A stretch of DNA of 64,000 bases from NCBI GenBank assembly GCA_031366005.1, contig JANLZB010000038.1, positions 41,208 to 105,207 on the forward strand. The letters run 5' to 3'. A program made the translations under genes and the position numbers. This DNA comes from Bacteroidota bacterium. GTDB lineage: Bacteria > Bacteroidota > Bacteroidia > AKYH767-A > OLB10. Shown here piece by piece: positions 21,660-55,662 of the stretch. Under the pieces are notes generated by a model. The model made no database searches. It was not told the DNA's origin and saw nothing but the letters and a program-made list of their open reading frames with translations. Positions within the stretch are counted from its first letter, which is position 1; each line of letters starts with the position of its first letter.

Positions 21660-21801
21660 TGTCATCCTGAAAGGAACTTGTGTAATAGTATTATAAAGGT
21701 TGACTTAGTGGGGAGTTGATTTAACAGAGGTGCGTTGAACAAACTTGCTTCGTATTCAAACTTTGGTGCAACTATTACACAAGTTCCTTTCAGGATGACA
21801 G
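21660..21801. repeat. perfect 30-bp inverted repeat (TGTCATCCTGAAAGGAACTTGTGTAATAGT) flanking an 82-bp spacer; MITE-like or operator palindrome
   Basis: Left arm 21660-21689. The exact reverse complement is at 21772-21801. Read directly from the sequence. Confidence 0.8.
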
Positions 21802-22074
21802 TTATTTCGTGTAAAAATACTTTATCCCGACAAATAACCATATCATTTCAAAAATATGTTTGCTTTGCCTGTAAACTGTAAACCGAAAAACGTAAACTAT
21901 ACTTTGACAAATCAAAAAAACTGTACTTTTTTACAACCTGTTCCCCGAGTATGTTTGTATCGTGAAAAACTATCTGGTAGAAACACTACCTTTAAACTTC
22001 AGCTTATGAAAACAATATTTACCTCCTGTAAGACGCAAAGTATTTTCTCCAAAACAATACATTGCTTCAAAATC

Positions 22075-28376: not shown

Positions 28377-28411
28377 ATTTATCTGAAAACAATTCGCCTC
28401 ATCATCTTATG

Positions 28412-28443
28412 CCTCTCCCAATCCCGATAGCTATCGGGAGAGG
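28412..28443. repeat. GC-rich hairpin CCTCTCCC-N16-GGGAGAGG with a nested palindrome CCCGATAGCTATCGGG
   Basis: Intergenic between convergent genes. It shares the CCTCTCC/GGAGAGG core with the metG intragenic repeats. No flanking T-run. Confidence 0.6.
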
Positions 28444-42070: not shown

Positions 42071-42140
42071 CGTCATGTTGAACTTGTTTCAGCATCTGTA
42101 CAAATAAATAGAGAGATGCTGAAACAAGTCCAGCATGACG
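42071..42140. repeat. hairpin repeat element, copy 1 (27-bp arms CGTCATGTTGAACTTGTTTCAGCATCT / AGATGCTGAAACAAGTCCAGCATGACG, 16-nt loop)
   Basis: Read directly. It lies in the divergent region between pyc and the 42234 gene. It is about 85-90% identical to copy 2 at 43483..43542, loop tail ATAGAG included. Confidence 0.8.
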
Positions 42141-43469: not shown

Positions 43470-43482
43470 GGAATAAGTAATA

Positions 43483-43542
43483 CTGAACTTGTTTCAGCAT
43501 CTATTGCAATAGAGAGATGCTGAAACAAGTTCAGCATGACGG
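43483..43542. repeat. hairpin repeat element, copy 2 (CTGAACTTGTTTCAGCATCT - ATTGCAATAGAG - AGATGCTGAAACAAGTTCAGCATGACGG)
   Basis: Read directly. It sits immediately downstream of the 42234..43469 gene in the same orientation as copy 1, so the two copies flank that gene. Confidence 0.8.
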
Positions 43543-52985: not shown

Positions 52986-53311
52986 CACTAATTTCAAGAA
53001 TTAACACAAACCCATTTTATCTTATACAAATCAATTAGTGCCAATTTGTGTAATTTGTGGCAAGATATCTCGCAGCTTGGCTACGGGAGGTATTCATTAT
53101 TTTCTTTCCAATAACTCTTATTTGAAATTATCAGGAGTGTAGTTTACAGTCTAACTAAACACTATCAAATAAAATACAATGAATGCATTTGATATTTTTG
53201 CCACTCTGAAAAAGTTTACGGTTTTCAGTTAACAATTTCTTGCGATAGTCATTCACACATTCGTTTAGTTACGTTAGAAGAAAAACCGTAAACCGTAAAT
53301 TGTAAAATTCT

Positions 53312-55561
53312 ATGCGTTATCTCGTTACAGCTGCGCTTCCTTATGCAAATGGTCCTCTTCACATTGGTCATATTGCAGGATGCTATTTGCCGGCTGATAT
53401 TTATGTGCGTTACCTGCGACTGATCAATGAAGATGTAAAATTTATTTGTGGTTCAGATGAGCATGGTGTGCCGATCACAATCAAAGCGCGTAATGAAGGC
53501 GTAACTCCTCAACAGGTTGTAGATAAATATCACAGCATAATGAAAAATTCTTTTGCGGAGTTTGGAATTTCATTTGATATTTATTCGCGAACAACAAACA
53601 AAGTACATCACGAAACAGCGCAGGCATTTTTTAAAAAGCTGTATGATGATAAAGTTTTTACAGAAGAAATTACGGAGCAATATTATGATGAGGAAGTAAA
53701 ACAATTTTTGGCAGATCGCTATATTGAAGGTACTTGTCCTCGTTGTGGTTTTGCACGTGCTTATGGTGATCAGTGCGAGAACTGCGGTTCATCATTAAAC
53801 CCCACTGATTTAATAAATCCTGTTTCAAAGCTGAGTGGTAAAGCGCCTGTGTTACGCAAAACAAAGAATTGGTTTTTGCCTTTAAACAAGTTTGAAAAGG
53901 ATTTAAAAAAATGGATTGGCTCGCACCAGGAAGACTGGAAAGTAAATGTGTATGGTCAGTGTATGAGTTGGTTGAACACAGGATTGCAGCCGCGAGCAAT
54001 GACGCGTGATCTTGATTGGGGTGTAAAAGTTCCGTTGCCTGATACAGAAGGAAAAGTATTAGACGTTTGGTTCGATGCACCGATTGGTTATATCTCTGCA
54101 ACAAAGGAGCTTTTTGAAAAGGAGGCAGGAGGCAGGAAGCAGGAGGCAGGGGAAAATAAGTTGGCAATTGGCAGTGGGCAGTTGGCAAAAGAAAAAAAAG
54201 AAGAAGAAAATAAAACAAGTGAACAATTATCCGAGACGACTCCCCTCTCCTTTGGAGAGGGGCAAGGGGGAGAGGTCTGGGAGCAATATTGGAAACAACA
54301 ACCCAACCCAAAAGATAATCCAAAGCTCATTCATTTTATTGGAAAGGATAATATTGTTTTTCATTGTTTGATATTTCCTGCCATGTTGAATGCGCATGGT
54401 GATTATGTGTTGCCAACCAATGTTCCGGCTAATGAGTTTTTAAATCTGGAAGGAGATAAGATTTCCACTTCACGAAACTGGGCAGTGTGGCTGCACGAAT
54501 ATTTAATTGATTTCAAAGACAAGCAGGATGTGTTGCGTTATGTATTGTGTGCAACAGCACCCGAAACAAAAGATAATGATTTTACCTGGAGAGATTTTCA
54601 GGCGCGCAACAACAATGAGTTGGTAGCAGTGTTTGGAAATTTTGTTAACCGCACGTTAGTACTCACACAAAAATATTTTGAAGGGAAAGTTCCTCCACAT
54701 CACAAACTGACAGATGCTGATCAGGAATGTATTTCTGCAATACAGGCAGCAAAAAGAAACATCAGTGACAGCATTGAGAAATTCCGTTTCCGTGAAGCGT
54801 TGAATGAGCTGATGACATTAGCTCGTGTAGGAAATAAATATTTAGCCGACACGGAACCGTGGAAAGTTTATAAAACAGATCCGCAACGTGTGGAAACAAT
54901 ATTATATATCGCTTTAGAAATAACAGCGTATCTCGCTGCATTATGCGAACCGTTTCTGCCGCACACATCTGCAAGCTTATATACAATGCTCAATCTTGAA
55001 AAATTAAACTGGGCAAAAGATTTAAAAGGACAAATATTAAAACCCGGACATGTAATGGGCGAAGTAAAATTATTGTTTGAAAAAATAGAAGATGAAATGA
55101 TAGAGAAACAGGTGGATAAATTACATGCTTCGAAAGAAGTGAATGCAATTCAGGAGGCAGGAAGCAGGAAGCAGGAAGCAGTGGGAAACAAAGTGGACAA
55201 AATCACGAAAGACGATTCCCTCTCCTTGGGAGAGGGTAAGGTCTCTTACGATGATTTCAGCAAGATGGATTTGCGTGTTGCAACAATAATTGCTGCAGAA
55301 AAAGTTGAGAAGGCAGATAAATTATTAAAGCTTACGCTTGATACAGGCATTGACCAACGCACAGTGGTAAGTGGAATTGCATTGCATTATAAGCCGGAAG
55401 AAATTATAGGACAACGCGTGACATTGCTTGCAAATCTTGCACCGCGTAAAATCCGTGGCATTGAATCAAAAGGAATGATTTTGATGGCAGAGAATGAAAA
55501 AGGAGAATTGTGTTTCATTGCTCCTACAAAAGATTTTGCTAATGGGAGTGGTATCAGTTAA
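53312..55561 (+). CDS. metG: methionyl-tRNA synthetase with C-terminal tRNA-binding (EMAP-like) domain; carries two in-frame repeat-element insertions
   Basis: 749 aa. The HIGH motif is [11 protein letters not shown]. The zinc knuckle is CPRCG...CENCG. KMSKS-type and anticodon domains are present. The C-terminus reads ...[27 protein letters not shown]... Extra segments interrupt the conserved connective peptide and the linker: [13 protein letters not shown]...[11 protein letters not shown] and [13 protein letters not shown]...SLSLGEGK. Confidence 0.9.
54118..54280 (+). repeat. intragenic repeat element copy 1 inside metG (GGAGGCAGGAGGCAGGAAGCAGGAGGCAGG ... CCCCTCTCC-TTT-GGAGAGGGG CAAGGGGGAGAGGTC)
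   Basis: Read directly. It is in frame with metG and has the same 5' and 3' modules as copy 2. Confidence 0.75.
55152..55247 (+). repeat. intragenic repeat element copy 2 inside metG (CAGGAGGCAGGAAGCAGGAAGCAGGAAGCAG ... CCCTCTCC-TTG-GGAGAGGG TAAGGTCTC)
   Basis: Read directly. It is in frame, located in the linker before the C-terminal tRNA-binding domain. Confidence 0.75.
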
Positions 55562-55600
55562 GAGCGAATTAATTTTTTTCAAGCTCCTTCAAATCCAAAT

Positions 55601-55662
55601 AAGTTGAATAGTTAATAGACAGAAATATTTTTTTGTCTATTAACTATTCAACTTACTTTTTT
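55601..55662 (+). terminator. strong hairpin terminator (perfect 20-bp arms AAGTTGAATAGTTAATAGAC / GTCTATTAACTATTCAACTT) followed by T-run; shared by convergent metG and the downstream T9SS gene
   Basis: Read directly. ACTTTTTTG follows the stem on the plus strand. Confidence 0.7.

Follow-up and report, generated by a model that had tools for sequence, protein, structure and literature searches.

Why does the methionyl-tRNA synthetase (MetRS) of a Bacteroidota bacterium, an essential enzyme, carry 2 extra GC-rich segments that resemble each other and keep its reading frame? The question is raised by metG in the 64-kb stretch of genomic DNA analyzed here (hereafter, the window). Our analysis points to a short hairpin repeat near the 3' end of both segments. 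The family to which this hairpin belongs forms inverted ends around open reading frames (ORFs) for DUF559, a predicted endonuclease and the candidate mobilizing enzyme of the family, and conserved genes carry forms with and without the ORF in their reading frame, recurrently at identical sites. We consider it probable that the MetRS inserts are relics or non-autonomous derivatives of such a hairpin-ended selfish DUF559 element, whose mobility we infer, and that they are tolerated in flexible regions of the enzyme.

The gene and its 2 extra segments are as follows (lengths in nucleotides, nt):

53312..55561, forward strand: metG, the host gene, an ORF of 749 amino acids for methionyl-tRNA synthetase
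54124..54276, forward strand: insert 1, 153 nt or 51 codons, in-frame; a clean gap against the DNA of the orthologues L001 and L002, and not in the proteins P0002, P0003, and P0004
55150..55247, forward strand, approximate bounds: insert 2, a related composite in the linker 5' of the C-terminal tRNA-binding domain

With 749 amino acids, the window MetRS exceeds its typical orthologues (679–688 amino acids) by the roughly 70 residues that an earlier note on this DNA had counted. P0001, a protein 100% identical to it and known from one contig, has the Pfam domains tRNA-synt_1g, Anticodon, and tRNA_bind; those orthologues that have a source name come from Bacteroidia or Bacteroidota, and type IX secretion-type proteins are present in the window. 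Both inserts are stop-free and divisible by 3 in length, and the linker carrying insert 2 has 38 amino acids against a baseline of 16–25. When the enzyme was compared with the structure PDB 1rqg (E = 5.6e-175), query residues 271–321 had no counterpart. The AlphaFold2 model gave pLDDT (predicted local distance difference test) values below 50 for residues 273–320 (insert 1, without predicted secondary structure) and 609–651 (insert 2). Structure mapping, which the earlier note had suggested, places both segments in these low-confidence regions; judged from the model, they sit in flexible, probably surface-exposed parts of the enzyme and are most simply read as being translated into disordered loops.

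Each insert is a composite of a 5' module of tandem heptamers, (RGCAGGA)n, then a spacer and a GC-rich hairpin. In the window, the GGAGGCAGGAAGCAGGA-type 5' motif occurs only at 54121–54151 and 55153–55183 (6 overlapping matches with at most 3 mismatches, 0.02 expected), and the hairpin core CCCTCTCC-N3-GGAGAGGG occurs only at 54243–54261 and 55218–55236 (0 expected from 100 shuffles). The alignment of the 2 inserts with each other scored 107.6, compared with 45 ± 6 and a maximum of 62.6 for shuffles, and the likeness covers both modules and their junctions. These counts and scores uphold the earlier description of 2 in-frame, repeat-derived segments that open with the motif and end with the hairpin, exactly at the places given for them. 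The GC content of the window is 36%, and of just 7 short GC-rich islands detected, one is the hairpin region of insert 1. Searching proteins with the peptide of insert 1 gave 1 candidate and 0 matches.

To what does the hairpin belong? Our metagenome scan with the pattern CCCTCTCCTTNGGAGAGGG found at least 133 copies (fractions given below for hairpin copies are among the matches listed). Nearly all listed copies continue, outside the searched pattern, with a short spacer and then GGGG[T/A]GAGG[C/T], and this tail is conserved throughout our alignment A2 of 92 metagenome copies. The family unit is therefore about 32 nt long and reads CCCTCTCC-TTN-GGAGAGGG-N-GGGG[T/A]GAGG, with a spacer of N1-5 and a tail ending in [TC]. 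R1, a covariance model made from the metagenome copies, describes an 8–9-bp stem of a C-rich and a G-rich arm, a 3–4-nt loop, a 1–5-nt spacer, and the GGGG[T/A]GAGG tail. It found 3 units in the window:

54240..54277, forward strand: full hairpin-plus-tail unit of insert 1, CCCCTCTCC TTT GGAGAGGGG CAA GGGGGAGAGGTC; R1 40.9 bits, E = 2.8e-9, full model
55210..55244, forward strand: truncated hairpin unit of insert 2, AGACGATT CCCTCTCC TTG GGAGAGGG TAAGGTCT; R1 27.7 bits, model positions 4–27
28405..28441, reverse strand: intergenic variant unit, palindrome TCCCGATAGCTATCGGGA followed by TT and the GGGAGAGGC tail; R1 15.9 bits, E about 0.012

The unit of insert 1 fits alignment A2, ends right before the Trp323 codon, and folds as RNA with -25.2 kcal/mol (z = -2.1). 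The hairpin of insert 2 has 16-nt arms that are 81% complementary and folds with -19.7 kcal/mol (z = -2.5); since it matches only the stem and loop of R1, it is truncated and has lost its tail. The third unit lies between convergent genes. The earlier note had placed another copy of the hairpin core there, at 28412..28443; the core palindrome is in fact a different one, TCCCGATAGCTATCGGGA, which 8 other fetched loci have alongside the main hairpin, and what stands is a match to the family model, mainly through the GGGAGAGGC tail. Beyond the 2 copies in metG and this variant, the R1 search found no copy in the window. Elsewhere, family copies span contigs of 30–66% GC from many genomes, and inverted pairs are frequent (L129, L174, L209, L366). 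The hairpin family is real and very widespread. At gathering scores, Rfam had no match, and relaxed thresholds yielded matches at chance level only. Of additional note, inspection of A2 by eye suggested that the tail has more G where the 5' arm opens with more C (CCC...GGG TGAGG versus CCCC...GGGGG TGAGG), which would make the 3' arm and tail a mirror repeat of purines (GGAGAGGGG-N-GGGGGTGAGG). The hairpin core was also frequent in contigs classed as viral (L243–L362, matches listed), where one locus, L279, had as many as 5 copies, and the viral-contig loci gave 0 DUF559 matches to the L130 query.

The connection to an enzyme comes from elements in which 2 hairpins enclose a DUF559 ORF. Such an element is about 470 nt long and has 2 terminal inverted hairpin repeats of 27–35 nt and, as its sole cargo, an ORF of about 400 nt for DUF559 (PF04480, Vsr-like PD-(D/E)XK). 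Inverted hairpin repeats, 81–94% complementary, flank DUF559 ORFs in L130, L145, L178, and L363. In L130, units of 35 nt that are 94% complementary and separated by 367 nt bracket a complete DUF559 domain, and the element is read in-frame within MetH, without a start or stop of its own. A single LeuRS site (WIG[RK]S.G...F, then the element, then I.VFTTRPDT) is used in L145, L178, L167, and L366. The last of these, from a relative of this organism, is the contig of the MetRS orthologue P0009: Its LeuRS carries DUF559 in-frame, the public gene call joins tRNA-synt_1, DUF559, and the LeuRS editing domain in one protein, and Pfam agrees. The right end of this L366 element, GGAGAGGGGATCAAGGGGAGAGGTG, is close to the right end of insert 1, GGAGAGGGGCAAGGGGGAGAGGTC. 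DUF559 elements also lie between genes, with both ends intact in L363 and a clear family unit at the left end only in L364.

An exhaustive search for DUF559 returned 22,533 representative clusters. Among the best 150 matches, 47 have at least 300 amino acids and 23 have an internal domain with more than 100 amino acids on each side. The hosts include LeuRS, another class I aminoacyl-tRNA synthetase (aaRS), SpoIIE-type phosphatases, trehalase, and restriction-modification proteins; by our reading of its AWTTTPWTLPSN motif, the second aaRS would be IleRS. In matches of at least 400 amino acids, 24 of 39 copies of the domain were flagged with flanking hairpin-type peptides, and hairpin-coded peptides stood at the termini of 34 of 120 DUF559 homologues, as against 1 of 120 shuffled sequences. 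The homologues with such peptides are mostly stand-alone ORFs of 100–240 amino acids from Bacteroidota and Cyanobacteria. In-frame DUF559 copies retain the motif DF...E[VI]DG..H.

Several single proteins of this set deserve mention in their own right. In the LeuRS of L145 (L145:1343-4741, minus strand), the DUF559 element occupies amino acids 337–441, 5' of the editing domain, and a separate solo hairpin unit lies at amino acid 697, before the TMPGWAGSSWY motif; P0249 has a hairpin peptide just ahead of a similar motif, STMPGYA. The Eco57I-like methylase P0250 (1214 amino acids) holds 2 DUF559 copies, and in the SpoIIE-type phosphatases P0299 and P0347, DUF559 lies within the phosphatase domain, between its conserved motifs GDFYW and DCTGHG.

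Hairpin copies also sit inside coding sequence. Among the 133 copies listed, 30 lie within ORFs that are open for at least 60 codons on each side, in both orientations and all frames. Pfam found host-gene domains in 15 of the 17 such ORFs that were scanned and none in the other 2, and in most of these hosts the domains flank the hairpin on both sides. The hosts are MetH, LeuRS (twice), AspRS, IspG, UvrA, DNA polymerase III delta', a Y-family polymerase, ValRS (2 tandem copies), a MeaB-methylmalonyl-CoA mutase fusion (2 copies), restriction-modification enzymes, and type IX secretion proteins.

How are the 2 sites in MetRS occupied across lineages? We compared 20 aligned MetRS proteins and the DNA of the 2 closest orthologues that could be fetched, L001 and L002. 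The 3 closest orthologues (87–90% protein identity, P0003 included) all lack insert 1, the empty site reading ...ELLPND|WEKYW; the lineage-specific insertion foreseen in the earlier note is borne out for this segment. The flanks of insert 1, 12 nt on its 5' side and about 45 nt on its 3' side, have identities of 0.63–0.77, compared with a gene mean of 0.865 ± 0.057. These diverged flanks might be co-conversion tracts or merely a weakly constrained loop. At insert 2, the heptamer array stands in the same place in L002/P0004, and the DNA alignment shows that the hairpin is missing there; the linker is a hypervariable region. Because the heptamer part is shared with this relative, it may predate the split or may have arisen in parallel, and insert 2 may be older than insert 1, so that the 2 would not be equal insertions.

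The immediate surroundings of insert 1 showed further small differences. Just 3' of it, at 54281–54325, there is a 15-nt indel (QQPNPKDNP versus DKDS); a similar five-residue insertion (TQPDEKDNP) is found in the more distant orthologue P0005 and is absent from the closest ones. The diverged 12 nt on the 5' side read LFEKE versus LLPND. The indel together with this upstream divergence suggests a patch of recombination or co-conversion around insert 1.

Our survey of 120 MetRS orthologues widens this picture. Baseline lengths are 3–10 amino acids at site 1 and 16–25 in the linker, and in scattered lineages both sites are expanded with sequence that reads like translated repeats. LTPDPSPKERG (P0060) and LTPNPSPQERG (P0009) are the reverse-oriented reading of the same hairpin; KSEIQNPKSEI and QLAVGN are heptamer-array readings, the QLAVGN type recurring in other MetRS linkers; and PIAIG (P0116, P0008) is a reading of the palindrome seen at window position 28420. 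Some orthologues have the same motif at both sites (SGSGSG in P0007, TPEGG in P0013 and P0014). In the DNA, L001 and L002 have an empty site 1, L365 (P0060) has one reversed unit there, and L366 (P0009) has an end-to-end doublet of 69 nt. The right junction falls at the identical Trp codon in the window metG and in L366. Within about 20 kb around metG in L365 and L366, family matches lie in aaRS genes only.

Based on these findings, we propose a mechanism for the origin of the inserts. By homing or by recognition of the ends, the DUF559 endonuclease would mobilize the complete elements as well as the derivatives that lack the ORF, which are either solo ends or end-to-end doublets. In essential genes, the survivors would be frame-keeping, stop-free copies in flexible regions, and this limit on survival would explain the repeated use of the same 2 MetRS sites. 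Insert 1 would be a recent gain with its right end intact; the decayed hairpin of insert 2, and heptamers that a relative has as well, suggest that this insert may be the older one. The heptamer arrays would be slippage-prone filler outside the mobile unit. If this genome holds a DUF559 source copy, its ends would read ...CAAGGGGGAGAGGTC. This scheme agrees with the match of the right end of insert 1 to the ends of DUF559 elements, and the L366 MetRS doublet, having terminal repeats and no ORF, fits the definition of a miniature inverted-repeat transposable element (MITE).

Several observations weigh against this proposal. A tblastn search found no DUF559 similarity in the 64-kb window, and neither insert has a left inverted repeat. 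With only a right end and no DUF559 in the window, insert 1 can be at most a derivative of a DUF559 element. Most of the sampled hairpin copies are solo, DUF559 adjoining just 4 of about 120 hairpin loci, so independent spread of the hairpin, or relics, are conceivable. No target-site duplication was found at the junctions of insert 1, L130, L363, and L366. Repeated use of a site could reflect tolerance rather than targeting, the spacer of insert 1 is only weakly like a DUF559 element outside the repeat itself, and no further heptamer-hairpin composite was found in the window. The parts of the inserts other than the hairpins are the following:

54120..54150, forward strand: heptamer tandem repeat AGGAGGC/RGCAGGA, the 5' module of insert 1; Tandem Repeats Finder (TRF) period 7, 4.4 copies, 91% matches
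54159..54188, forward strand: second heptamer array, TTGGCAR (TTGGCAA); TRF period 7/14, about 4 copies; encodes LAIGSGQLA
54189..54239, forward strand: A-rich spacer of insert 1, with gappy likeness to the sequence 5' of the right inverted repeat in the L366 LeuRS element
55151..55181, forward strand: heptamer tandem repeat CAGGAAG/RGCAGGA of insert 2; TRF, 4.4 copies; same position in L002

The whole of insert 1 aligned to the L366 LeuRS element with a score of 73, versus 40 ± 5 for shuffles, mostly from the repeat itself; with an alignment so gappy and repeat-driven, an origin of the spacer from the sub-terminal region of such an element is no more than suggested. Head-to-tail copies of a 7-nt unit make up the 5' module (TRF period 7, 4.0–4.4 copies in 3 arrays, at 54120–54150, 54161–54188, and 55151–55181). 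We scanned for (RGCAGGA)3 in one genome per species; among the matches listed are Nostocales, Oscillatoriales, Acidobacteriota, Chloroflexota, Gemmatimonadota, Bacteroidota, and others, and in these matches the arrays often adjoin other heptamer arrays or an inverted array. Among the sampled (GGCAGGA)n-type arrays, 17 of 124 lie in long ORFs. Bacteria are known to have an excess of heptamer repeats, ascribed to polymerase slippage (PMC4692102). The present arrays resemble the short tandemly repeated repetitive (STRR) sequences and other heptamer simple-sequence repeats in being period-7 tandem arrays, (GGCAGGA)n being common in Nostocales and other phyla and often forming inverted array pairs; they differ in lying within a coding region. 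The heptamer units here also differ from the published cyanobacterial STRR heptamers. The small dispersed repeats (SDR) of Nostoc, treated by Elhai and colleagues in 2008, are reportedly hairpin-forming mini-repeats of about 21–27 nt that lie next to tandem heptamers and nest in other repeats; unlike them, our hairpin family and heptamer arrays show no association in the present samples.

A general composite of heptamer array and hairpin was considered and rejected: Period-7 arrays were near hairpins in 2 of 133 cases compared with 5 of 546 controls, and 710 kb around (GGCAGGA)n arrays contained 4 hairpin matches, 0 of 4 adjoining an array. Since the modules have no general linkage, the composite that the 2 inserts have in common is particular to this gene or genome. 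The only other place where heptamers touch an element is in L167 (L167:1-420, minus strand), where the array (AAAGTTY)n directly borders the in-frame DUF559 element of LeuRS at its left inverted repeat; KVQSLK, a reading of (AAAGTTY)n, also occurs at MetRS site 1 of P0031. In the window itself, an AT-rich heptamer-like repeat (AAACCGT, 2.4 copies) lies at 53283–53299, just 5' of the metG start, and CTGTAAA (4.3 copies) lies at 21869–21898, just inside the start of the ORF at 21856; these start-codon heptamers may reflect a leader or promoter element common to both genes, or further heptamer slippage.

The strongest rival explanation, which we regard as unlikely though worth weighing, needs no mobile element: The heptamers would have grown by slippage in the loop and the linker, and insert 1 would be an intragenic copy of an earlier, fuller insert 2, made by ectopic gene conversion or template switching. 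The heptamer arrays are indeed simple-sequence repeats, the 2 inserts are alike across modules and junctions alike, and the sole 2 strong copies in 64 kb share one gene. Since the modules are unassociated elsewhere, the shared composite points to direct copying, and the orthologues with one motif at both sites (P0007, P0013, P0014) fit such exchange. What speaks against copying is the hairpin: With 40.9 bits, the hairpin and tail of insert 1 rank fully as a member of a family found outside this gene and are more complete than the copy in insert 2, family units at the same MetRS site are oriented differently in L365 and L366, and the entry of the hairpin into the gene would still be unexplained. 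The earlier claim that one element inserted twice stands in part. The 2 segments are in-frame repeats, as it held; the unit is, however, a composite of 2 unrelated modules, the heptamers of insert 2 are shared with a relative, and the hairpin of insert 2 is truncated.

Far less credible is the idea that the inserts are host-adaptive extensions, that is, interaction or localization loops kept for their peptide. Both are in-frame, the same 2 sites are expanded in many orthologues, and aaRS proteins do acquire appended domains. The expansions have no sequence conservation and the segments are predicted to be disordered, which makes an adaptive role improbable; the closest relatives manage without insert 1, and the peptide is a mere reading of a DNA repeat that is found elsewhere in all frames and both orientations. 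Just as improbable is that the inserts are intervening sequences absent from the mature protein, removed by RNA excision, by translational bypass (as in the yeast mitochondrial "byp" elements), or by protein splicing. Here, one may point to the GC richness of the hairpin elements against an AT-rich background (36% GC), and the paired inverted ends of DUF559 elements could in principle join their flanks in RNA. However, lengths in multiples of 3 nt and freedom from stops would be needless if the segments were removed, no Rfam intron or other RNA family was matched, and Pfam found no intein (Hint) domain in the scanned DUF559-bearing host proteins; this explanation is unlikely on both counts. 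That the inserts are repeats misjoined into metG during metagenome assembly is the least plausible of all, for although the protein is known from one contig, 2 independent frame-keeping errors, both at known variable sites, would be improbable, and equivalent in-frame inserts occur in many independent assemblies.

Derivation of the inserts from a hairpin-ended DUF559 element thus remains our preferred explanation, and it recalls several known systems. The earlier note had likened the segments to Rickettsia palindromic elements (RPEs), and as a mode of action the comparison is apt: RPEs (as cited in PMC3733652) are short palindromic repeats that lie in-frame in many conserved genes and are read as extra loops of likely functional proteins. 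RPEs belong to another phylum and are apparently unrelated in sequence, and the likeness is one of behavior only; they are about 100–150 bp long, compared with a unit of about 32 nt here, and have no known enzyme, whereas the present hairpins flank DUF559 endonuclease ORFs. A second parallel is with repetitive extragenic palindromes (REPs), their paired forms (REPINs), and the REP-associated tyrosine transposases (RAYTs). REPs are GC-rich palindromes of 20–40 nt that often form inverted pairs (PMC3733652, PMC3116915), intragenic in-frame REPs are documented with tRNA synthetases among their hosts (PMC3733652), and a small nuclease gene is flanked by inverted copies here as RAYT genes are by REPs. 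Unlike REPs, our family has no GTAG or CGTC tag, the 3 columns 5' of the stem being variable in A2; the gene it flanks encodes a PF04480 DUF559 PD-(D/E)XK nuclease rather than a tyrosine transposase of the IS200/IS605 type; and it is conserved across many genomes rather than confined to one species.

The nuclease itself has relatives that home. VSR and DUF559 have been grouped with the proven homing endonuclease I-Bth0305I (PMC3424549), and PMC2677866 describes Vsr-like homing endonucleases in phage introns, in inteins, and as stand-alone inserts. The present elements share with these the nuclease clade, a location inside conserved genes, and the reuse of sites across lineages. The known enzymes lie in group I introns or inteins or split a gene, whereas here the ORF is fused in-frame to its host and is bounded by hairpin inverted repeats. 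In the DUF559-bearing hosts, no intron was matched by Rfam at threshold, and Pfam gave host domains and DUF559 only, with no intein. The literature searched, itself incomplete and, for DUF559, judged by title and abstract, gave no account of the hairpin family, its peptide readings, or in-frame hairpin-ended DUF559 elements; the earlier note's impression of an undescribed family is in line with this. In-frame palindromic repeats in genes are already known from RPEs and intragenic REPs, and what we offer as a lead is a possibly new class of selfish element. More boldly, and tentatively, we suggest that this class is an undescribed one of about 470 nt, made of hairpin inverted repeats and a DUF559 ORF without start or stop, which would home into conserved sites of essential genes (LeuRS, IleRS, MetRS, MetH, and SpoIIE-type phosphatases) and be expressed with the host protein without any intron or intein; the MetRS inserts would be its ORF-less relics, and the heptamer arrays may be scars of repair at the junctions.

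Other repeats in the window are recorded here for completeness. Two intergenic copies of the palindrome (C)GTCATGYTGAACTTGTTTCAGCATCT / AGATGCTGAAACAAGTYCAGCATGAC(G) lie at 42071–42140 and 43477–43540, with arms of 26–27 nt that are 92–93% complementary; the copy at 42071 opens with CGTC, like the "CGTC-tagged" REPs of Bacteroidetes (PMC3733652). The MetRS linker of L001 has a related motif, GCTCAGCATGAC...GTCACACTGAGC, in-frame and with the reading VLSMT...VTLSEVEV. The intergenic region 5' of the ORF at 21856 contains, at 21660–21800, a perfect inverted repeat of 30 nt (TGTCATCCTGAAAGGAACTTGTGTAATAGT) with arms 81 nt apart; it looks MITE-like and is a single copy in the window. Right after the metG stop, at 55597–55658 between convergent genes, a hairpin with 29-nt arms (93% complementary), a 4-nt loop, and a following T-run is probably a bidirectional terminator.

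For annotation, our findings mean that many small "hypothetical" ORFs and odd tRNA synthetase loops would be mere readings of repeats. For protein engineering, the insertion sites mark positions in conserved enzymes that tolerate added sequence. In-frame palindromic invasion of essential genes is best known in Rickettsia, and genomes of Bacteroidota-like bacteria and of cyanobacteria appear to show it commonly as well. Here, the repeats are tied to a concrete candidate enzyme, DUF559, a family of more than 22,000 representative clusters without an assigned role. If that link is causal, in-frame fusion in tolerant loops would be a third route, beside introns and inteins, by which endonuclease genes persist.

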